Source: Armatimonadia bacterium
Lineage (GTDB): Bacteria > Armatimonadota > Zipacnadia > Zipacnadales > UBA11051
DNA length: 10,552 nucleotides
Direction: 5' to 3'
NCBI GenBank assembly: GCA_039683575.1
Contig: JBDKRC010000263.1
Coordinates: 1 to 10,552 of the forward strand
The notes under the pieces were generated by a model. The model saw only the letters and a list, made by a program, of their open reading frames with translations. It ran no database searches and was not told the DNA's origin. Below, one piece after another: positions 940-10,552 of this stretch (position 1 is the first letter of the stretch; each line of letters opens with the position of its first letter). A program made the position numbers and the translations under genes.

Positions 940-1587
940 CTAAGCCACGATCATATCCGTGCGGAGACTCCGCCCCATTTTCTTCTTCGCCCGCTGCAGC
1001 GCGTTGTCAATCTGCTTGACCCCGCACTTCAGCTCCCGCGCAATGTCACCGTACGATTTGCCCTCGATGTACCGGCGCAAGGCCTCCGCCTCAAGCTCCG
1101 ACAGGTAGCGGCGAATGTGCCCATCTACCTCGGTGCGGAACTCGTGGTGCAGGAACAACTCCTGCGGGTCACTCGGCCGGGACTCGATCAGTACGTCCCG
1201 CAAGGGCGGCTCATCATCGGCATCCGCGGCTGGCAATTCCGTTGACACATACAGATTTAGCAATGAGTGCTTTTGCCGCGTGGCTGTCTTCACGGCGGTA
1301 ATGATCTGCCGTGTTATGCACAGTTCGGCGAACGAACGGAATGCTGCCAGATTGTCTTCCGAGAAATCGCGGATGGCTTTGAACAGGCCGATCATACCCT
1401 CCTGGACCACATCTTCATGATCCGCGCCCAGAAGGAAATATGAACGAGCCTTACCCTCGACCAGATGACGGTACTTGCGCAGGATGTGTTCCGTGGCGCA
1501 TAGCGAACCGCTCTTGGCCTGCGCTACGACTTCCTCGTCGCGCATCGCCTGGAAGCCATAGCGCGCCCACAGATTCCCTGCGGCCAT
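940..1587 (-). CDS. sigH: SigH-family alternative sigma-70 factor, 215 aa
   Basis: Motifs KYRHLVEGKARSYFLLGADHEDVVQEGMIGLFKAIRDF, FRSFAELCITRQIITAVKTATRQKH and C-terminal HTH KSYGDIARELKCGVKQIDNALQRAKKK match the Firmicute SigH (Spo0H) signature. Start moved from the ORF-track 1695 to ATG 1587, which has AAGGAGGA at 1593-1600. Confidence 0.93.
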   Translation of the reverse strand: MAAGNLWARYGFQAMRDEEVVAQAKSGSLCATEHILRKYRHLVEGKARSYFLLGADHEDVVQEGMIGLFKAIRDFSEDNLAAFRSFAELCITRQIITAVKTATRQKHSLLNLYVSTELPAADADDEPPLRDVLIESRPSDPQELFLHHEFRTEVDGHIRRYLSELEAEALRRYIEGKSYGDIARELKCGVKQIDNALQRAKKKMGRSLRTDMIVA

Positions 1588-1828
1588 ACGTATCCTCCTT
1601 CCACTGCAAAGTGTAGCGGAGAACGCGTGTAACGGCGTGCGACTTATGCTGCAAGTGTTACCAAATCCCCCGCCTTTGCCACCGAATGATGGCAAACCTC
1701 GTGGAACAGGACGAGCGTTGCCACTCCTCCTGGAGCATATATATGCCGTATCGGCCCGGAACCGATGGTGTCGTCAATTGTGAAAGTGGTCGTGGCCAGA
1801 TTGACTCAACAGCCAACGATTATTGTTA

Positions 1829-2075: not shown

Positions 2076-3236
2076 ATGCTGAACCTGAACCGGGTGGGAT
2101 TGGGTGTCATTCTTCTCGTGCTGGGAGCAGCCGCCGCGGCTGCCGCCCCGCCGCCGGAAGTGCACGCCTACTACTTCACCGCCCCCCAGTGCCCCAGTTG
2201 CGACAAGGCCGACAACCTCATGGCCACCTTGCTGGCCAACGACCCGCAGGTCAAGCTACACACCCTCAACGTCTACCTGCCCCCGGAATATGAGGTCGCT
2301 GAGGCGCTGCTCGTTGTCTCGGGCATCTCGAGCAAGGAATTGCCGCTGGGCCCTGGCCTACTGGTGGGGCAGACCTACATCAACCGCAATAAGTTCTCCA
2401 AAGCAGCGGTGGAGGCTGCACTTAACGCCTACCGCACCACCGGCGCCCCCGACCGGACTGCCGAGGCAATGCCGCTCAAGGGCCACGCCCGCGAATCGTT
2501 GCCCCAGGAGTTGCGTCGCTGGGGGCTGCTCCCGTTCCTCGTGGCCGGGCTGCTTGACGGGATCAACCCCTGCGCCTTCGCCACTTTGATCTTCTTCCTG
2601 TCATACCTGGGGATGATGGGCAGCCGGGGTTGGTCGCTGGCCTCGGCAGGTCTGGCCTTCGCCGCGGGAGTGTTTGCCGCCTATTTCGTCTTTGGCCTCG
2701 GCCTGTTGCACGCCCTGTGGGCGCTCAACAGCCTCCCCTTGTTGCGCTGGGGGCTGTTGCTGCTCATGGGAGCGATCTCTCTCGTGTTTGCCGGTCTCTC
2801 CTTCAGGGACTACCGGCGCATCTCGAAGGGCGACTTCGCCTCTGTAACGCTGCAACTGCCTTTGGGGCTCAAGCAACAGACCCACGCGATCATCAGGCAC
2901 GGTCTGCGGGCACGACTGCTGTACCCGGCCAGCTTCCTCATCGGCGCCGGCGTCTCGACGCTGGAGCTTGCCTGCACGGGACAGGTCTACGTCCCGGCGC
3001 TCATCTACATGATGAGCCTCGACGAGACCCGCAACCGGGCCGTCGGCTGGCTGCTTATGTATGACGTGATGTTTGTCGTTCCCCTGTTGTGTCTGCTGCT
3101 ACTCGTCCTCAGAGGCAGCACCTCCAAGCGCCTGAAAGCCCTGGCCGAGGAGCAGGCCGGCAAGACCAAGCTCTACCTTGCGGTGTTCTTCGTGCTCTGC
3201 GCGGCGTACTTCCTGATGCGCGCGGCAGGGCTGTAA
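2076..3236 (+). CDS. Exported thioredoxin-like CxxC domain fused to a CcdA/DsbD-like (cytochrome c biogenesis-type) transmembrane domain, 386 aa
   Basis: N-terminal signal/TM, then YYFTAPQCPSC (CxxC after a beta strand). About 6 TM helices follow, with the two membrane cysteines in LLDGINPCAF and LELACTGQVY, typical of CcdA/DsbD-beta-like domains. No clear RBS, so the start is less certain. Confidence 0.85.
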   Translation: MLNLNRVGLGVILLVLGAAAAAAAPPPEVHAYYFTAPQCPSCDKADNLMATLLANDPQVKLHTLNVYLPPEYEVAEALLVVSGISSKELPLGPGLLVGQTYINRNKFSKAAVEAALNAYRTTGAPDRTAEAMPLKGHARESLPQELRRWGLLPFLVAGLLDGINPCAFATLIFFLSYLGMMGSRGWSLASAGLAFAAGVFAAYFVFGLGLLHALWALNSLPLLRWGLLLLMGAISLVFAGLSFRDYRRISKGDFASVTLQLPLGLKQQTHAIIRHGLRARLLYPASFLIGAGVSTLELACTGQVYVPALIYMMSLDETRNRAVGWLLMYDVMFVVPLLCLLLLVLRGSTSKRLKALAEEQAGKTKLYLAVFFVLCAAYFLMRAAGL

Positions 3237-3336: not shown

Positions 3337-3984
3337 TTAGCTCGTGCCGTCCGCCCGGTTGTGGGCGCCTTGGCCAGCCATTATGGCGCTTTGGGACAGC
3401 CACTTGGCGTGACCATCACAGAAGGTGAGGTTGCAGCCATCGTTGTGCCGCTTGCTGGCTGCGGTCCAGGTCGCGTAGGTGTATGGCGGGTTCGGGCCAA
3501 CCTGTGACCACGGGGCAGTCGCCTCGATCAGCATCATCGTCTCGGCAGGCGCGACGATTGTGCCCATAGCGGCCCAGCGGAGCTCTAGGCCCATTCCATA
3601 GCTAACGCTGTGGTCTGTGGTCCAGGCTGCCGTGGGGGCGTTGGGAGTGGCGCACGGCTTCTGCTGGCCGGCCAGAACCTGGCATGGCGCCGAGTCCGAA
3701 GGACAGATACCAACCTGGTAGTTCTTGATGTAGGGCTGCACCACAGTGTCCCACTCGCCGCCGTAGGACGTGGCGGAGCAGTCTGCGGACGGCAGTTTCT
3801 CGTCGTAGTCCTGCGAGTACGACAGTATCGCCAGACCAAGCTGTTTCATGTTGGACAGACAGCTCGACTGGCGGGCCTTCTCGCGTGCCTTGGCGAAAAC
3901 CGGGAACAGAATGGCCGCCAGAATGGCGATGATGGCGATAACGACCAGCAACTCAATGAGCGTAAAACCGCGTTTCCTAAGCAC
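3337..3984 (-). CDS. Prepilin-type N-terminal cleavage/methylation domain protein, DUF1559 / H-X9-DG family, ~215 aa
   Basis: RG^[46 protein letters not shown] at the N-terminus and [12 protein letters not shown] near the C-terminus. GTG 3984 chosen as start because AAGGAG (3994-3999) is 9 nt from it but abuts ATG 3993. The 457-aa ORF-track extension is not supported. Confidence 0.92.
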
Positions 3985-4027
3985 TCTAGGCATCTCCTTG
4001 CCATTGGATATTCGCTGCCAGTTCACA

Positions 4028-4057
4028 ACTATATAACACAATATAGTGATATTGCAA
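4028..4057 (-). promoter_or_regulatory. Putative promoter of the DUF1559 gene with an overlapping palindromic operator
   Basis: Minus strand TTGCAA (4057-4052), 18 bp, TATAGT (4033-4028), within an AT-rich island. Inverted repeat ACTATAT-N6-ATATAGT at 4028-4047. Confidence 0.55.
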
Positions 4058-4194
4058 GTGCAAGGTGTGCGCTTGTCCATAGCGGCAGCGGAAGTCCTGT
4101 CTTGCCGGCAATAGACGGGGAAATCCGACAAGAGCTGTGGCATCTGGTAAGCCCTGCTGAAGAGACCGGCTATGGCTCTGAGACGGCAGCCTGA

Positions 4195-4262
4195 TCTGTC
4201 GAAAGATGGACTTGGAGGTCTCTCCACAGGCGGATGCGGCTGTCCTGCGGACCGCGTACACT
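4195..4262 (+). promoter_or_regulatory. Repeated promoter module, copy 1 (most diverged box)
   Basis: TCTGTCG-AA-AGATGGA (4195-4210), TCTCCAC-AG-GCGGATG (4221-4236), -10-like TACACT (4257-4262). Offsets are the same as in copies 2-4. Confidence 0.65.
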
Positions 4263-4374
4263 GCAAACGTAGAAGCATCACTGGTGCTGCTGCGAAGAGT
4301 AAGCTACGTTGGTTTGGCGCAACCGAGGGTGGCCAGAAGATCATGGTTGAGATGTCCCGGTCGCAGGTGCAGCA

Positions 4375-4581
4375 ATGAGTGGCAGGTTCGAGAGCAGGCG
4401 AATGCCGGGCATCCGCCATTGGACCAGCAGCAACGGCCAGTTCCGATTCCGCTGCGCCAGCCCCCGGGTAGCCATTGCCGATGCTGGTATGCCGCTGGAA
4501 TACCGCGTGCGCTGCTTTGAACTCAAGGCGAACGGTGATAGGGGCCCCGAGGCAGTCGTGAACTGCCGCATGGCTCCCTGA
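4375..4581 (+). CDS. Possible small hypothetical protein, 68 aa
   Basis: ATG preceded by AGGTG (4365-4369). First plausible ORF after promoter copy 1. The C-terminal half [25 protein letters not shown] looks beta-strand-like. No family recognised. Confidence 0.25.
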
Positions 4582-4700
4582 ACAGGCTAAGCGTCCCAGG
4601 CGTGCAGATTGTGACGCCCGCGCGGTTCGCGGCACGGCACAGTGGACAGCATCACCATTGGCCGCCTTATCACGCTGCGGTCGCCACAAAGAGGTATTAC

Positions 4701-5450
4701 ATGGCGGCACTCCGCTCCAGCGAGGAAGACGTCGTAGAGATTCGCCGCACTTTCAGCGAGCCTTTTGAAGAGCTTTTGGTGGAAGTGTCGAGCGACCCGC
4801 TGCGAGCGGAGGCCCTCGCTACGCGCCTGACTGACATGCGCAGGCATGCCATCGAACGCCACGACTATTATGAGCGTTACTGTAATCAATATCTCGCCAT
4901 AGGGCTGGCGATGCTGCCGTTTGCGTTCACGATCGGCGGGTTCGTACTGAACTTCATGAGGACGGGGGGTGTAGGCGCGGTCTGGGCGCTTCCGACGGCC
5001 CTGGGCATCTTGACCTTTGCGGGTACGGGCCTGGCCGTACTAATCCTCTACATCAGAATGACCTCCACCAACTACTGCTATCGTCAGATCGAGAAGACAC
5101 GGTCGTGGTACCATACCCACAGCGTCTTGTCGGGCACCGGGAATGCCGACAAGATGAGTCCCGAGCAGCAGGATGCGGACAGAAGAGACTTTGCCGACAA
5201 TCTGCGGATCTACGGCGAGCAATGGCTGCTCTTCATGCAGGTGCCGTGGGCGCCGATTGCAGAAGACATTGAGCGCATTTTTACTCTTTTCGTGTTACAG
5301 TCAGCCAAGCGCCGCCACGTGCGGACGCTCGCGAAGGTTGTTCAGTGGGGAGTGACGATGGGAACGGTGCTGCTTATCGTGGGGCTGATGTACCTGGCGG
5401 CGGGAATGGGCACGCATGTCACGGCGACAGCGGGGGGCAGGATGCGATAG
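4701..5450 (+). CDS. Hypothetical membrane protein, 249 aa, with two N-proximal TM helices and one C-terminal TM helix
   Basis: ATG 4701 with AAAGAGG RBS. Hydrophobic segments [49 protein letters not shown] and [23 protein letters not shown]. Confidence 0.8.
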
Positions 5451-5537
5451 TTGTGGCGAGGCCGCCCAGCATCCATAGGGGTACGGCACGGCCGGCGCCT
5501 AACACGACACCGTCGTTGATTTGCTGAGGAAGGCACA

Positions 5538-6740
5538 ATGGGGGAGACATTGCTCCCCACGGAGGACACTACGGAACGAACGCAGGTAGAAGCAGCGTTG
5601 GCGGCCTCAGAGATGCGGTACCGGCGGCTCTTTGAGACCGCGCAGGACGGCATTTGGTTGGTGGATGCTCACACTGGGGAGATCGTGGACTCCAACCCCT
5701 TCCTTGAAGATCTGCTGGGGTATACCCACGACGAGATGGTGGGCATGAAGCTTTGGGAGGTCGGCCCGTTCAAAGACATGGCAGCCGCCAAGCTGGCCTT
5801 TGAGAAGCTGCAAGAAGAGCGGTACATCCGCTACGAAGACCTGCCCCTGCAGACAAAAGGCGGCCGGAGCATCAACGTCGAGTTCGTCAGCAACGTGTAT
5901 GCGGTCGGGGACGAGGAAATCATCCAGTGTAACATCCGCGACATCACCGAACGCGCGCAAGCCGAGGAGCAGTTGCATGTTCTGCGCCTTGAGCTTGAGG
6001 AGCGCGTTGCAGAGCGCACCGCAGAGCTGGCGCGAGCCAATCTCGCTCTCCAGGGCGAGATCGTTGAGCGCGAACGGGCCGAAGCGCGCGAACTCACGGT
6101 AGTGGTGGAGGAGCGGACGCGCATGGCCCGCGAGATCCACGATACACTCGCCCAAGGCTTTACGGGTATTGTCATCCAGTTGGAGGCCGCTGAGGATGTA
6201 CTGCTGGAGCAGCCGGAAGCCGCACGCCTGCATGTACTCCAGGCGCGCACCCTGGCGCGAGAGAGCCTGGCCGAGGCCCGCCGCTCGGTCTGGGCCCTGC
6301 GGCCACTGGTACTGGCGGCCGAGGACCTCGGATACGCCTTTCTCCACCTCGTGAAGAAGCTGGCGGAGGAATCCGGGACGGCAATCGAATTCACTCTCAG
6401 CGGCGTGCTCCGCCCGCTGAGCGAGGATCTTGAGCACCATCTGCTGCGTATTGGCCAGGAGGCGCTCACCAACGCCCTCAGACACGCCAATGCGACCGAG
6501 ATCCGCGTGACGCTCACCTGCAACAGCGACTCGATTACGTTAAGCATAGAGGATCAAGGTGAAGGGTACGAGGTCCTTGCGGGGGGAGACAAGCGCGGCC
6601 TGGGACTGCGCGGCATGCAAGAGCGCGCGGATGCTATTGGCGGAGAGCTTGAGATCGGCAGCGCGCCTGGACAGGGGACTCGCGTACGAGTGACAGTGCC
6701 ACTTCCTCGTGATGAAGGAGAGCCTCTTGCAGAAGACTGA
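5538..6740 (+). CDS. Soluble PAS-domain sensor histidine kinase, HisKA_3 (NarX/UhpB-type), 400 aa
   Basis: PAS from [12 protein letters not shown] to NIRDITER, then a coiled coil. H-box [16 protein letters not shown]-box [12 protein letters not shown]1 EDQGEG, G2 [18 protein letters not shown]. No TM segment. GAGG upstream of the ATG. Confidence 0.95.
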
Positions 6741-7356
6741 CCCGATCAGGATTCTGGTAGCTGATGACCATCCGGTAGTGCGTGCGGGCCTTGTGGCGCT
6801 GGTGGACCGGCGACCCGATATGACTGTGGTCGCTGAGGCGTCCAACGGGCAGGAACTGCTGGATCAGTTCCTGCTGCACCGCCCGGATGTCGCTCTCGTG
6901 GACTTGCGCATGCCCGAAATGGACGGCGCCGACGCCATCGCAGCCATTCGCGAACGAGCGCCCGGGGCGCGCGTGATCGTTTTGACGACCTACGACGACG
7001 ACGAGGACATCCAGCGCAGCCTCCGCGCCGGCGCCAAAGCCTACATGCTCAAGGACGCGGCCCGTGATGATCTGCTAGCTGCCATCAAAGCTGTACACGA
7101 GGGGCGGACCCTCATTCCCCCGGCCATCGCCACCAAACTGGCCGAATCCATAGGTGCGCCTACCCTGACCGCTCGCGAACTCGAGGTGCTGGCGCTCGTT
7201 GCGGACGGCAAGTCCAATCGCGAGATCGCCACTCTCCTGTTCATCACCGAAGGCACCGTCAAAAGCCATCTCAGCACCATGCTGGGAAAGCTTGACGCCT
7301 CTGACCGCACGCAGGCAGTGACCATCGCTCTCAAGCGGGGCCTCCTGCGGCTGTAG
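6727..7356 (+). CDS. NarL/FixJ-family response regulator (REC + LuxR-type HTH), 209 aa
   Basis: ILVADDH, phosphoacceptor VDLRMP, LTTY, YMLK and [43 protein letters not shown] 6727 has AAGGAG (6715-6720) 6 nt upstream. Overlaps the kinase 3' end. Confidence 0.96.
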
Positions 7357-7424
7357 CTCCTCGTACCCTCCTGTCTGCACGTCTGGCCCCCATTGCCTCT
7401 CGTTGCTCCTGCCATGTCCCTGTA

Positions 7425-7492
7425 GCCACCGAAAGACATAGACGCAAACCCACCCGCCGGCGGATGTGCCACTTCAGTCCCGCGGCTATAGT
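7425..7492 (+). promoter_or_regulatory. Repeated promoter module, copy 2
   Basis: GCCACCG-AA-AGACATA (7425-7440), CACCCGC-CG-GCGGATG (7451-7466), TATAGT (7487-7492). Upstream of the beta-barrel gene. Confidence 0.75.
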
Positions 7493-7592
7493 TACAACAG
7501 TCCGGCACTTGGATGTGCCTGGACACAGGACCTGATGACGCTCTCGTACGCGTCACAGTCCAAATGCAGCAAGAGAGACAAGAGGCGGCAAG

Positions 7593-8414
7593 ATGAAGCT
7601 CACATGGGCGGCAGTGATGGCGTGTTGTTTGACATTGGCGACTATCGCGGGGGCACAGACTATCCCGAACACGCCGCGGGCGATGGGTATGGGTAATGCG
7701 GTAATCGGCGTTGCTGACGACGCTGGTGCGTGGTCACAGAATCCGGCAGGGCTTGGTGCTTTGCACGTGGCGACGAAGGATGGCAATAGCTGGGGCCACG
7801 ACATTGTGGTGGGCTTTGGCGAGATCAACCCTGGGAATGACGACCTGGCGATCAACTGGTCTGGCTGGAACCCCACCACGACGATCGGTCTCGGCGCGGG
7901 CTACAACGGCCTGGGCCACACCGAGACGTTCGGCGCCGGCTTTGGCATGAGCTACAACAAGACCATGTTCAGTTGGGGCGTTGACGTCATGCGGATCAAG
8001 AACGATAGCCACTCCGACACCGCGCTTGATCTGGGTGCAATGTACCGGTTCATTCGGCCCGGAAAGCCAAGCACACGTCTTGGCCTCAAGATCTCTGATA
8101 TCGGCGACTCAACCGATGCCGGCCCGCAGGTTGGCCTTGGCGTAAGTTGGACGGCTGCCGAAAACCTGATGGTCGCGGTTGATGTGGCTGACATATCCGG
8201 CAAGTCCGCCCACGGACCGTTCATCAACGCTGGCGCTGAGTACCGGCTGGGCAAGACGAATGAGTGGAGCGCTCGCGGCGGGCTGTTTGACGCCGGTGAC
8301 GGGCACAAGCTCACCCTCGGCGTTGGCCTGGTCCTGCCGAAGGTTCGGCTGGATCTGGGTTACATGAACACCGACAGCTCAAGCTGGATGGTCGGCGCGG
8401 GCTTCGACTTCTAG
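7593..8414 (+). CDS. Secreted outer-membrane beta-barrel protein, PorV/FadL-like N-terminus, 273 aa
   Basis: Signal peptide ending AGA|Q. PRAMGMGNAVIGVADDAGAWSQNPAGLG matches the RA.GMG...D.....NPAGL motif of PorV/FadL-type barrels. Alternating amphipathic strands and a C-terminal aromatic signature (GAGFDF). Confidence 0.85.
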   Translation: MKLTWAAVMACCLTLATIAGAQTIPNTPRAMGMGNAVIGVADDAGAWSQNPAGLGALHVATKDGNSWGHDIVVGFGEINPGNDDLAINWSGWNPTTTIGLGAGYNGLGHTETFGAGFGMSYNKTMFSWGVDVMRIKNDSHSDTALDLGAMYRFIRPGKPSTRLGLKISDIGDSTDAGPQVGLGVSWTAAENLMVAVDVADISGKSAHGPFINAGAEYRLGKTNEWSARGGLFDAGDGHKLTLGVGLVLPKVRLDLGYMNTDSSSWMVGAGFDF

Positions 8415-8445
8415 ATAGGTTCCACACCGGGAGATAGGTAGCAAA

Positions 8446-8488
8446 GAGAAAGGTCACCGGCTGTCGGTGGCCTTTCTCGCCGTTTTGT
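8446..8488 (+). terminator. Probable intrinsic terminator after the beta-barrel gene
   Basis: gagaaaggtcaccgg-ctg-tcggtggcctttctc hairpin (8446-8478, with G-U pairs), followed by gccgtttt. Confidence 0.6.
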
Positions 8489-8503
8489 CGACAGCGGAGC
8501 ATC

Positions 8504-8571
8504 TCCCCCGAAAGATATAGAGAAAGAGTAACCTACGGACCCATGTCGGCTTCACGGTTTCCGACTACAGT
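8504..8571 (+). promoter_or_regulatory. Repeated promoter module, copy 3
   Basis: TCCCCCG-AA-AGATATA (8504-8519), degenerate second block AACCTAC-GG-ACCCATG (8530-8545), TACAGT (8566-8571). Upstream of the second response regulator. Confidence 0.7.
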
Positions 8572-8648
8572 ACAGTGCCTGCATACCAAGCCGGGGCTTG
8601 GGCGTTGCACTGCTATTCCTGACCTTTCCATTCCTTAAGGAGCTTCTT

Positions 8649-9188
8649 GTGAAGCAGAACAATCCCATTAGAATGCTCGTCGCGGATGATCACCAGATTG
8701 TCCGTGAGGGCTTGGTAGCTCTCATTAACCGCCGGCCTGACATGGAAGTGGTTGCCCAGGCGGCCAATGGGCGTGAACTGGTCGAGCAATTCCTGCTCCA
8801 CTGTCCCGACGTTGCCCTGGTAGACCTGCGCATGCCCGAGATGGATGGCGCGGAAGCCATCGCAGCCATTCGCGAGGTCATACCCTCAGCGCGCGCGATC
8901 GTGCTGACGACCTACGACGACGGCGACGACGTCAAGCGTTGCTTCGCGGCAGGCGCGAAGGCATATCTACTCAAAGGCACGGGTCGCGAGGAGTTGATGG
9001 CCTGCATCAAGGCAGTGCACGAGGGGGAGGACCTGATTTCCCCTCCGTCATCCTCAACCTCGCCTGACAAGCCAGCACCTTCGCATCTCTCCGCAGGAGA
9101 CCGCGGCGAGAGGTTCCGTGGGGACTGCAGGTCCAGCCGGCTGGTCGCAGCTCCTTCGCGCGGCCCGCAGGGATACTGCGAAGCCTAA
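8649..9188 (+). CDS. NarL-like response regulator paralog with intact receiver domain and no functional HTH, 179 aa (possibly a partial pseudogene)
   Basis: GTG 8649 with AAGGAG 6 nt upstream. The receiver matches the 6727 regulator at 88/121 residues by manual alignment and keeps DD, D, T and K. The tail is S/P-rich and lacks the LuxR recognition helix. Confidence 0.8.
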   Translation: MKQNNPIRMLVADDHQIVREGLVALINRRPDMEVVAQAANGRELVEQFLLHCPDVALVDLRMPEMDGAEAIAAIREVIPSARAIVLTTYDDGDDVKRCFAAGAKAYLLKGTGREELMACIKAVHEGEDLISPPSSSTSPDKPAPSHLSAGDRGERFRGDCRSSRLVAAPSRGPQGYCEA

Positions 9189-9218
9189 GGCGTGTGGCTG
9201 GCCTGGTCAAGGTGAGGC

Positions 9219-9242
9219 AGCACAGGGAGCGATCCCTGTGCT
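9219..9242 (+). other. 10-bp hairpin with GNRA loop after the second regulator (weak terminator or 3' stabiliser)
   Basis: agcacaggga-gcga-tccctgtgct, with no U tract. Confidence 0.5.
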
Positions 9243-9265
9243 CATTAGCGTGTACAGGCTCATCT

Positions 9266-9333
9266 TCGTCCGAAAGGCATAGAGAGGGACCCACCCACCG
9301 GCGGATGCGCCATTCACCGGTTCCGGCTACAGT
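9266..9333 (+). promoter_or_regulatory. Repeated promoter module, copy 4
   Basis: TCGTCCG-AA-AGGCATA (9266-9281), CACCCAC-CG-GCGGATG (9292-9307), TACAGT (9328-9333). 46/65 gap-free identity with copy 2 (9270-9334 vs 7429-7493). Confidence 0.75.
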
Positions 9334-9378
9334 TGCATTAGTCGGGTACTCTACGTGCCCAAAGAAGAGGTGTTGACG

Positions 9379-10506
9379 ATGCAATGGAGACGAATGGGCC
9401 TGGTACTCTCACCGGCAGTCCTGCTTCTCGTATTGCTCGCAGGCTGTCGCACACAGACGGTGGCGCCCGTGCAAACCGCCGTATCGCCGGCTACCGCGGC
9501 GAAGTCGCAATATGTCGAGCTTACATATCCGCAATCTGATGATCAGGGCCATTATATCGGGCTCCCAGAAGCCGGTGACGTGACAGTGTCCGGGCTCATT
9601 GCGGCGCTCAGCCCGCCGACGGGCGTCGTCGTCAACGGCACCACCGTTGAGCCCTACCTTGTCCAGGGCGTCACACCGTTCGGCACACCGGCGGGTTACC
9701 AGACCTATGGTTTTGACGCGCCGATGTCGCTCACACCCACCTCTTTGTTGAGCGTTGCCCTCCAGGCGCTCGGGGTGACCGCGCCGGCGACCACTTTCGC
9801 ACCAAACACGGACAGTACCTACTCGCGCTTGTTGGCACTCGCTGGCCTCACCCCGAAGGCTCCTGAGTCGCAATACCGGTTGGGTAACGCCTACCTGACC
9901 AGCCGGGAGTACAACAAGGCAGTCGACGCGTACAACCGCTCGGTCGCGCTGCAGCCGCAGTTTGCGTGGGGCTACGATGGCCTGGGACAGACCTATGTCC
10001 TGATGCACCGCCCGGGTGATGCCGTGATCTACTTCAAGAAGGCGAAGAAGCTGCATCCGAAATGGGCCAACCCGAGCTATCGCCTCGCCGAGGTCTACAA
10101 CTCCCAGAAGCGGTACGACGACGCGATCACAGAGTACCGGCAGGCACTGAATGTCTGGCCGACGCATCCTGGCCTGCACCGCGGCTTCGCGGTCGCACTG
10201 TACAACCGGGGGCACTATCAGGAAGCCTGGAAGCACGTCCAGACTGCCGAGAAGAGCGGGGCCAAGTCGCCCGCGGACTTCAAGAAGCGGCTGCAGGCGA
10301 AGTTGCCCAAGACGGCAAGCAAGGAAGCCGGGAGGAACGGCGGGGATAAGCCGTCGAGCCGGGATGAGAAGCGTCAAGATGGCGTGCGACGCGATGGCCC
10401 TCATGCGGAGGAACTTAACAACAAGCCCCAGAAGCGGCAGGATGGCGTCCGAGAGCCGGGCCCGCACGCACAGGGGCAGAGGCACAAGCCCTCGAAGGGC
10501 AATTAG
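9379..10506 (+). CDS. TPR-repeat lipoprotein, 375 aa
   Basis: ATG 9379 after GAGGTG. Lipoprotein signal MQWRRMGLVLSPAVLLLVLLAG|C. Beta-rich N-domain, about 4 TPRs (YRLGNAY, YDGLGQTY, YRLAEVY, HRGFAVALY) and a charged, probably disordered tail. Confidence 0.9.
   Translation: MQWRRMGLVLSPAVLLLVLLAGCRTQTVAPVQTAVSPATAAKSQYVELTYPQSDDQGHYIGLPEAGDVTVSGLIAALSPPTGVVVNGTTVEPYLVQGVTPFGTPAGYQTYGFDAPMSLTPTSLLSVALQALGVTAPATTFAPNTDSTYSRLLALAGLTPKAPESQYRLGNAYLTSREYNKAVDAYNRSVALQPQFAWGYDGLGQTYVLMHRPGDAVIYFKKAKKLHPKWANPSYRLAEVYNSQKRYDDAITEYRQALNVWPTHPGLHRGFAVALYNRGHYQEAWKHVQTAEKSGAKSPADFKKRLQAKLPKTASKEAGRNGGDKPSSRDEKRQDGVRRDGPHAEELNNKPQKRQDGVREPGPHAQGQRHKPSKGN
10369..10494 (+). repeat. Two tandem 63-nt (21-aa) units in the lipoprotein C-terminus
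   Basis: KRQDGVRRDGPHAEELNNKPQ (10369-10431) and KRQDGVREPGPHAQGQRHKPS (10432-10494). Confidence 0.85.
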
Positions 10507-10552
10507 CGGATAGTCTTCTGAGATGCCCACCAGGCGTGCCCCCGCTCCCGGG

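Follow-up and report, generated by a model that had tools for sequence, protein, structure and literature searches.

The 10,552-nucleotide contig JBDKRC010000263.1 of the Armatimonadia bacterium assembly GCA_039683575.1, hereafter the window, carries in four of its intergenic regions a predicted promoter module in which two 18-bp dyads stand at fixed distances upstream of a -10 hexamer. In a collection of 79 genomes of the class, 67 of them of the same order, the architecture of this module is conserved, and the module is inherited together with, and lies adjacent to, one pair of genes for a sensor histidine kinase and a response regulator. A conserved module that travels with such a pair is most likely the on-switch of that regulator, and we suggest, with a probability of about 0.68, that it is an activator-dependent promoter of the sigma-70 type which the local regulator would switch on, the genes behind it forming a predicted regulon. 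To our knowledge, almost nothing is known of transcription control in the Armatimonadia, which are mostly uncultured. The locus offers a testable regulon, made up of a sensor-regulator pair, a predicted two-dyad operator at fixed distances from the -10 and a set of targets, and it also affords an initial working model of how a promoter in this class is built.

Architecture of the predicted promoter module

Offset 0 denotes the first base of YCGAAAG in each copy, and G-, C- and L-numbers denote genomes of the class, contigs and loci, G000 being the window's own genome. The four copies in the window are:

4194-4262, plus strand: module copy 1, with distal dyad 4194-4211, proximal dyad 4218-4235, -35-like hexamer 4234-4239 and -10 hexamer TACACT 4257-4262
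7424-7492, plus strand: module copy 2, with distal dyad 7424-7441, proximal dyad 7448-7465 and -10 hexamer TATAGT 7487-7492
8503-8571, plus strand: module copy 3, with distal dyad 8503-8520, degenerate proximal dyad 8527-8544 and -10 hexamer TACAGT 8566-8571
9265-9333, plus strand: module copy 4, with distal dyad 9265-9282, proximal dyad 9289-9306 and -10 hexamer TACAGT 9328-9333

An earlier note on this DNA had described four gapless copies of a fixed-geometry module, and the description agrees with the sequence: YCGAAAG begins at 4199, 7429, 8508 and 9270, always on the plus strand and nowhere else in the window, and the box strings had been given correctly. GCGGATG occupies offsets 31-37 in copies 1, 2 and 4 (ACCCATG in copy 3), the -35-like hexamers ATGCGG, ATGTGC, ATGTCG and ATGCGC stand at offsets 35-40, and after a 17-bp spacer the -10 hexamers TACACT, TATAGT, TACAGT and TACAGT begin at offset 58. 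All four copies are intergenic and directed into plus-strand units. Copies 2 and 4 are identical at 46 of 65 positions, and the 19 mismatches (offsets 7, 14-18, 27, 38, 43, 45-53 and 60) are concentrated in the spacers, as had been claimed. YCGAAAG alone is within chance expectation in the window (4 occurrences seen, 2.37 +/- 1.51 expected; 42 of 200 shuffles reach 4); the composite YCGAAAG-N28-ATG-N20-TANNNT matches exactly these four places and was found in 0 of 200 shuffles. Copy 1 is the weakest of the four, with an E-value of 6.1e-10 in the profile R1 described below, for which it was a training copy.

The anatomy of the module was taken from an alignment of 27 copies from six genomes. 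Conservation extends over offsets -5 to 13, 17 to 40 and 58 to 63, and no column of the 27 copies is conserved after offset 64. The matrix with which the copies were collected covered offsets 0-42 only, so the hexamer at offset 58 is an independent observation: TANNNT is found there in 16 of the 27 copies and at offset 59 in three more, and the looser NANNNT is found at offset 58 in 23, the next commonest offset having seven. At the -35 position the copies read ATGYGS, which in all four window copies matches TTGACA at two of six bases and in the relatives is poor as well. A scan with the consensus sigma-70 promoter called none of the four window copies, because their -35 matches it too poorly.

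Scanned for 7-4-7 symmetry, offsets -10 to 44 gave two peaks only, at centres 3.5 (r 0.81) and 27.5 (r 0.78), every other centre remaining at r 0.55 or below; of nine layouts of arm and spacer length, five put this pair of centres at the top, whichever of the two comes first, and all nine have both among the best three. The module is thus a pair of 18-bp dyads with centres 24 bp apart, each with 7-base arms around a non-symmetric 4-base spacer. The earlier note had read the two blocks as 7-2-7 heptamer pairs of the NarL kind, which does not hold: the inner four positions are complementary in only 2-3 of the 27 copies in the distal dyad and 7-11 in the proximal one, symmetry starts at the third position from the centre (27 of 27 and 26 of 27 copies), and the layout is x-4-x instead. 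The edges that had been drawn for the boxes (YCGAAAG and what follows it, and GCGGATG) likewise cut across the dyads. The four half-site profiles, gTCtaCC, CTaTAtC, aCCCACC and ATCCaCC, are related to each other; gTCtaCC, aCCCACC and ATCCaCC appear unlike the NarL heptamer. Of the two dyads the proximal one stands out more clearly (consensus aCCCACC-N4-GGtGGAT); the distal dyad reads gTCtaCC-GAAA-GrTAtAG. When the distal 18-mer profile is slid along the proximal one, the highest correlation falls at a shift of 24 (r 0.47; next 0.31).

On the assumption of a transcription start some 7 nt downstream of the -10, at around offset 70, the dyads would be centred at about -66.5 and -42.5, close to the positions of -66 and -41 that had been predicted for the two sites. 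The proximal dyad (centre 27.5) would then overlap the poor -35, followed by a recognisable -10. The form of that hexamer, TAnAnT, suggests that ordinary sigma-70 rules apply.

The module is also more numerous than had been thought. When the 6.23-Mb assembly was scanned with a matrix made from these four copies, two further strong copies came up, C166:57 (+) and C166:1412 (+); the six strong copies score 41-81 and the next best place 16.2. The earlier claim of four local copies therefore stands for the four positions and fails for count and extent, as it undercounts a cluster that continues onto contig C166. The two contigs meet within a single structure:

10533-10552, plus strand: left arm and loop of a G+C-rich terminator-like hairpin, the right arm of which is formed by the first bases of contig C166

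The end of the window and the start of C166 overlap by 5 bases inside this hairpin, where the assembly breaks. A DNA contig of run X1 spans window positions 8730-10500 and continues into the C166:57 copy, with 103 letters between, which is also the number computed from the 5-base overlap. The bridging contig is 95-99% identical, and probably comes from a close strain. Bridge and hairpin overlap together place six copies within about 12 kb. The genes behind the two copies on C166 encode a secreted protein, its N-terminal domain being of the copper-amine-oxidase type, and a hybrid kinase of the nitroreductase-receiver-HisKA-HATPase kind. Outside the cluster, a refined matrix and the profile both pick out the candidate G000:C278:35741(-) (35678-35745, L107; R1 E-value 1.2e-6), which has TATGAT at offset 58. 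It precedes an NTP_transferase/hexapeptide (sugar nucleotidyltransferase) gene by 145 bases and is a possible seventh member of the regulon. Genome-wide, the matrix scan gave the six strong copies on two adjoining contigs, this moderate one and two weak matches; the seven strong or moderate ones are all directed into a gene downstream. When the genome was scanned with single boxes, the known modules came out on top, followed by look-alikes of the proximal box; those at G000:C235:11218(-) and G000:C87:8423-8462(+), which have no good distal box, may be chance matches or single-site targets.

Co-inheritance with a kinase and regulator pair

The genes and hairpins behind the four window copies, in order, are:

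4375-4581, plus strand: open reading frame (ORF) of 68 amino acids, of doubtful reality, the first after copy 1
4701-5450, plus strand: predicted membrane protein of 249 amino acids, no family match
5538-6740, plus strand: sensor histidine kinase with PAS, HisKA_3 and HATPase_c domains
6727-7356, plus strand: response regulator with a receiver (REC) domain and a GerE/LuxR helix-turn-helix, overlapping the kinase gene by 14 bases
7593-8414, plus strand: gene of 273 amino acids, presumed target, with an N-terminus that looks by eye like a signal peptide
8446-8478, plus strand: terminator-like hairpin of 15 pairs, then a T run (fold z -4.09), closing the unit of the 273-residue protein before copy 3
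8649-9188, plus strand: receiver-only paralog of the regulator (Pfam Response_reg only)
9219-9242, plus strand: hairpin of 10 pairs with a weak T tract (fold of 9189-9269, z -3.00), after the receiver-only gene and ahead of copy 4
9379-10506, plus strand: protein of Pfam TPR families, presumed target, with a lineage-specific N-terminal domain, lipoprotein-like by eye

The operon behind copy 1 consists of the 68-residue ORF, the 249-residue gene, the kinase and the regulator, and copy 1 is its presumed autoregulatory promoter. The 68-residue ORF has no Pfam family and one weak tblastn match (33% over 60 amino acids, in G032:C174); the 249-residue protein has no match beside the regulator orthologs of relatives. 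Copy 2 begins 68 bases past the stop codon of the regulator, and no terminator-like fold was found between that gene and the copy (z -0.16). The hairpins before copies 3 and 4 and before the C166 copy indicate separate units, and the genes downstream of the copies are unrelated to one another. The 273-residue protein, in which no Pfam family was found, has a weak PorV/PorQ-like match (NCBIfam PorV_fam, E-value 9.9e-09, 35.2 bits, below the cut-off of 90).

The kinase matches HisKA_3 (1.4e-18), HATPase_c (3.4e-16) and PAS_9 (7.9e-09) and no other Pfam domain. The regulator matches Response_reg (6e-28) and GerE (7.8e-19, residues 152-207 of the 215-residue form); D13, D14, D59, T87 and K109, which make up the acidic pocket, the phospho-acceptor Asp, and the Thr and Lys, are invariant in 10 aligned sequences. 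It matches the structures of VraR, ChrA, NarL, DesR and DevR over its full length, with VraR/LiaR (5hev, 1.2e-44) and NarL (1.3e-35) as the closest solved relatives. By receiver, helix-turn-helix and an adjacent HisKA_3 kinase, the predicted protein belongs to the NarL/FixJ family, and it lies under every NCBIfam equivalog cut-off: the best match is NarL (NF007935, 163 bits against a cut-off of 250), and MadR, MctR and NarP likewise fall below theirs. The receiver-only paralog is 67% identical to the regulator over residues 3-137 and keeps the phospho-acceptor residues, and has no helix-turn-helix; in its place the window protein ends in a low-complexity tail of about 50 residues. A second such paralog, from another family, stands behind a module copy in G017:C488:2506-2985 (L089) and stops after the linker. 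The proteins of G000 and G017 are 64% identical to each other and 63-74% to the regulators, with no clear grouping together. The receiver-only paralog may be a phosphate sink or a feedback element.

Full-length orthologs of the regulator (62-78% identity) are present in five other genomes, namely G017, G030, G032 (two), G034 (two) and G057, and in every other genome of the class the best full-length match is 46% identical or less; the receiver-only paralogs (67% in G000 and 71% in G017, over about 140 residues) were counted apart. With a fixed pattern and up to two mismatches, good copies of the module were found in G000, G017, G032 and G057, and a reversed-pattern control gave 0; the matrix, applied to the contigs around the regulator orthologs, added copies in G030 and G034. 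A sequence-only profile of the 27 copies, R1, was then run uniformly over the 79 genomes and found 28 places at an E-value of 2.2e-5 or better (26 training copies and two new ones), all of them in the six regulator-bearing genomes; the best match in the other 73 genomes has an E-value of 0.0026 (19.9 bits, partial matches). The scan of genome and relatives that the earlier note had called for gives good matches to the module only in the six genomes with an ortholog.

Among the patterns tried, two-mismatch matches in G005, G007, G012 and G027 were rejected as chance, having no CCACC block and matrix scores of 11.5, 10.3 or below 10, and exact-pattern matches in G029, G010, G035 and G032:C351 looked unrelated on inspection, nor did the matrix return them. 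A search of a species-representative genome collection with an exact 23-base pattern returned two already known relatives only, and a 21-base pattern found in a metagenome collection the new contig L103, whose regulator is 87% and whose kinase is 80% identical, and another that belongs to the organism of G017.

Within the bearing genomes the module is tied to the pair by position. A copy starts just past the stop codon of the regulator, usually after about 25-80 bp, in the window, G032:C237, G032:C174, G057:C130, G030:C306, G017:C488 and L103, and a copy lies upstream of the whole kinase-regulator operon in the window (4199), G057:C130:8615(-) and G034:C29:7442(-). Kinase orthologs of 70-80% identity directly precede the regulator in G032:C237, G057, G030, G034:C29, G017 and L103, and the pair is the only gene set common to all loci that have a copy behind the regulator. 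The regulator paralog on G034 C219 (62% identical) has no module in its 11-kb contig at a matrix score of 12 or above. The proposal that the module marks a regulon of the local regulator is supported by this co-inheritance and adjacency.

The core shared among the loci consists of the kinase, the regulator, the copper-amine-oxidase-N-domain protein and the nitroreductase hybrid kinase (G057; G030 in part), and other targets vary with lineage: ice-binding-like PEP-CTERM proteins, PD40 repeat proteins and small secreted proteins, and in G034 a radical-SAM gene that precedes the kinase gene. Homologs of the TPR target stand behind module copies at G017:C422:3602(-) and G032:C530:8833(-). Many genomes have homologs with N-terminal coverage; of the loci examined, the module accompanies those in G017 and G032 only, and at the threshold used it was not found at the loci in G039, G020 and G057:C65. 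A metagenome contig of the G017 organism (L104/L105) joins C422 and C689 and carries at least four module copies in series, before two TPR paralogs, an ice-binding-like PEP-CTERM protein and a secreted protein of 146 amino acids, with one further copy reversed, toward a receiver-domain gene.

G032:C174 (L084) holds a second, paralogous system, with copies at 702(-), 1916(-), 4543(+), 5773(+) and 7773(+), a regulator 70% identical and a kinase match of 28% identity on the opposite strand. Its module is a variant with CCAAAAG and GGCCGATGCGG blocks and a GAGAAT hexamer, and it looks like a diverged regulator-operator pair.

The distribution is patchy, as the module is present in one of 16 genomes of the window's family and in four other families, and absent from the three further genomes of the same genus that were searched. 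Synteny of the window with G002, G003 and G004 ends right after the sigma-70-family gene at 940-1590, and from about 1700 on the window differs from the close relatives examined. That gene belongs to the core of the order: 66 of the 67 genomes have it, most of them together with a second paralog, and its identity follows taxonomy. When G000 is compared with the primary locus of each relative that bears the module, the regulator is 70-78% and the kinase 70-77% identical, and the core sigma factor 40-61%; higher identity of the pair than of this one reference gene fits a horizontal spread of regulator and operator. Regulator and operator seem to move as a unit, a point of general interest in the study of how regulons are transferred. 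A more far-reaching version, which we consider doubtful, is a portable 'plug-in' regulon that would move horizontally between Armatimonadia families and recruit surface-protein genes by copying a 70-bp cassette, the distal box, in view of its GAAA core and its phasing, serving as an architectural element (a tetramer wrap or bend) or as a docking site for a partner; either role of the distal box would explain the frozen geometry in all copies.

Proposed mechanism and alternatives

In the mechanism that we propose, the PAS/HisKA_3 kinase (5538-6740) would phosphorylate the regulator (6727-7356), and a regulator dimer on the proximal dyad, over the -35 region, would recruit RNA polymerase to a promoter with a good -10 (TAnAnT) and a vestigial -35. 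This would be recruitment of the class II type, as by LuxR and TraR. A second dimer on the distal dyad would probably help, in a tetramer as in LiaR/VraR. One signal could then turn on six or seven units in this genome: the system's own operon, for which the position of copy 1 implies positive autoregulation, the PorV-like protein, the receiver-only paralog, the TPR protein, the copper-amine-oxidase-N-domain protein, the nitroreductase-receiver-kinase hybrid and possibly the sugar nucleotidyltransferase. The receiver-only paralog could drain phosphate as a form of feedback. The predicted targets, those of relatives included, are mainly secreted or envelope proteins (copper-amine-oxidase-N-domain, ice-binding-like PEP-CTERM, TPR and PorV-like proteins), joined by the receiver-only paralog and the nitroreductase-fused hybrid kinase as signalling targets.

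Several observations weigh against this proposal. The distal dyad is weakly symmetric in single copies, most of its arm positions being complementary in 11-13 of the 27, and its GAAA spacer is the best conserved part of the module, with the A at offset 17 also among the top positions; a spacer would not be expected to be so well conserved, which may point to another reader or to a requirement of DNA shape. The 24-bp spacing places the two dyads on different faces of the helix, which is not the textbook phasing of two cooperating activator dimers. The left arm of the proximal dyad is poor in copy 3 and in C166:1412, and a site overlapping the -35 can also serve repression. R1 and the matrices were trained on the six bearing genomes, so that only the absence of matches elsewhere is informative, and the relatives are not independent. 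Finally, the RNA data, Logan contigs of two metatranscriptome runs of one sample (X2 and X3), comprise six short contigs, all on 5189-7361, which touch the 249-residue gene, the kinase and the regulator and none of the presumed targets; being assembled contigs, they cannot show transcription starts.

The spacer, the imperfect arms and the phasing speak for a reading in which the regulator binds the proximal dyad only, the distal box with its nearly invariant CGAAAG being read by the C-terminal domain of the RNA polymerase alpha subunit (as an UP-like element), by a nucleoid or bending protein or by an unlinked factor, and the distal box is purine- and A-rich in a genome of 63.5% G+C. We nevertheless consider this rather unlikely, as the left distal arm resembles both proximal arms (r 0.63-0.70), the best match of the two 18-mers falls exactly at the shift of 24, and the distal right arm of G032:C174 reads like a proximal half-site. 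The usual positions of UP elements are downstream of -66.5, which counts against that form of the explanation, and no second conserved DNA-binding gene lies beside the module loci, nor was any other DNA-binding protein seen there among the ORFs examined on the contigs of relatives. The overlap of the proximal dyad with the -35 position admits the opposite sign of regulation, in which the sites are operators and the regulator, phosphorylated or not, lies over the -35 and shuts off a promoter that would be active without it; both repression and activation are known for NarL-family regulators. A -35 matching at only two of six bases next to a good -10 would make a weak promoter without help, and a second, upstream site is typical of activation. 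The centre at -42.5 is moreover the classic activating position for LuxR/TraR-type proteins (PMC3907764), and we regard repression as improbable.

Two further explanations were considered. The fixed spacing between the GGATGTG block and the hexamer, and the sigma-70-family gene (940-1590) 2.6 kb upstream, would suit a promoter of an alternative sigma factor with GGATGTG as its -35 and TAnnnT as its -10, the link to the regulator being only a shared island ancestry. However, that gene is core, as noted, and the module is present in six of 79 genomes of the class; no sigma gene is seen among the listed ORFs of the relatives' module-bearing contigs, the hexamer looks like a housekeeping -10, and both the distal dyad and the dyad symmetry would be left unexplained, which makes this reading very improbable. 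We give still less credence to the copies being leftovers of promoter duplication, propagated or mobile and without a common regulator today, or a transcribed RNA leader. Homologous upstream regions before unrelated genes are what promoter propagation yields, and some similarity survives in the spacers, in the form of a 10-base string common to window copy 4 and G032:C237. Divergence is nonetheless concentrated in the spacers while the blocks are kept across five families, a pattern that indicates selection. Nothing is conserved downstream of the -10, and an Rfam search at gathering thresholds found three tRNAs in the window and nothing else, which together speak against a transcribed RNA element. 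The earlier note had itself named a miniature inverted-repeat transposable element (MITE) or repetitive extragenic palindrome (REP), with many copies in random orientation, as one finding that would overturn its proposal; with six or seven copies in the genome, directed into genes and without terminal repeats, the module is no such repeat.

The shared string is CCGGTTCCGG, in the spacer between -35 and -10, at 9317-9326 of the window (copy 4, offsets 47-56) and at about 1515-1524 of G032:C237 (L083). The two copies that bear it come from different families, and weaker versions of it occur in other copies.

Neighbouring genes and known systems

The left part of the window holds the end of tuf, the three tRNAs and the sigma-70-family gene; its features up to copy 1 are:

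940-1590, minus strand: sigma-70-family gene with regions 2 and 4 only, adjoining the tRNAs and tuf
2076-3236, plus strand: membrane protein of 386 amino acids without a Pfam family, with a Cys-x-x-Cys in its N-terminal part and only a weak ArsG-like transporter match
3337-3993, minus strand: DUF1559/N-methyl pilin-like gene, divergent from module copy 1
4028-4057, minus strand: near-consensus sigma-70 promoter (TTGCAA, 18 bp, TATAGT) before the pilin-like gene, 140 bases from copy 1

The last of these was called by the consensus scan, showing that signals of the sigma-70 type exist in this genome.

Among the papers listed by a search of the literature on response-regulator promoters in Armatimonadetes, none deals with such a regulon, to judge from titles and abstracts. 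As a mechanism this is familiar, and what the sequences provide is a well-supported prediction of a regulon of a known kind. NarL and NarP of E. coli belong to the same family as the local regulator, NarL being its best NCBIfam match, and are likewise paired with a HisKA_3 kinase, and activation from sites near -42 to -45 is known in the NarL family. In contrast to NarL/NarP, the local regulator scores 163 bits where the equivalog requires 250, and its predicted sites have a spacer of four bases and not two.

A parallel in site layout is SsrB of Salmonella SPI-2, also of the NarL/FixJ family, which uses an 18-bp 7-4-7 palindrome (PMC2837388). SsrB resembles the module in having degenerate 18-bp dyads with a variable 4-bp spacer before many units of one horizontally acquired cluster, its own operon included, and two copies of the palindrome are reported upstream of ssrAB (PMC2837388). 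The module differs from it by an unrelated half-site, by two dyads per promoter at a fixed distance from the -10 and by the conserved GAAA spacer of the distal dyad; the SsrB sites have been shown by footprints and chromatin immunoprecipitation, whereas those of the module are predicted.

Two dyads in one operator recall LiaR, a regulator of cell-envelope stress: its activated tetramer occupies a consensus site together with a secondary one that adjoins it, and the DNA is bent (PMC4482077). LiaR/VraR is the closest solved relative of the local regulator, and the likeness would extend to a bipartite, extended operator, autoregulation and envelope-protein targets. The local kinase differs in having a PAS domain, no LiaF-like partner was seen, the site sequence is another one, and the host is an armatimonadial bacterium and not a Firmicute.

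The positions of the dyads are matched by TraR, whose boxes of 18 bp are found either about 45 nt before the transcription start, where they overlap the -35 (class II type), or about 65 nt before it (class I type) (PMC3907764). TraR and LuxR share with the module 18-bp inverted repeats, in their case bound by a dimer with a LuxR-type helix-turn-helix, a proximal site over a weak -35, and positions that match -42.5 and -66.5. TraR is activated by a ligand and has no receiver domain, whereas the local regulator has one; and, according to that review, a TraR promoter has one box at one of the two positions, where the module would have both positions filled (PMC3907764).

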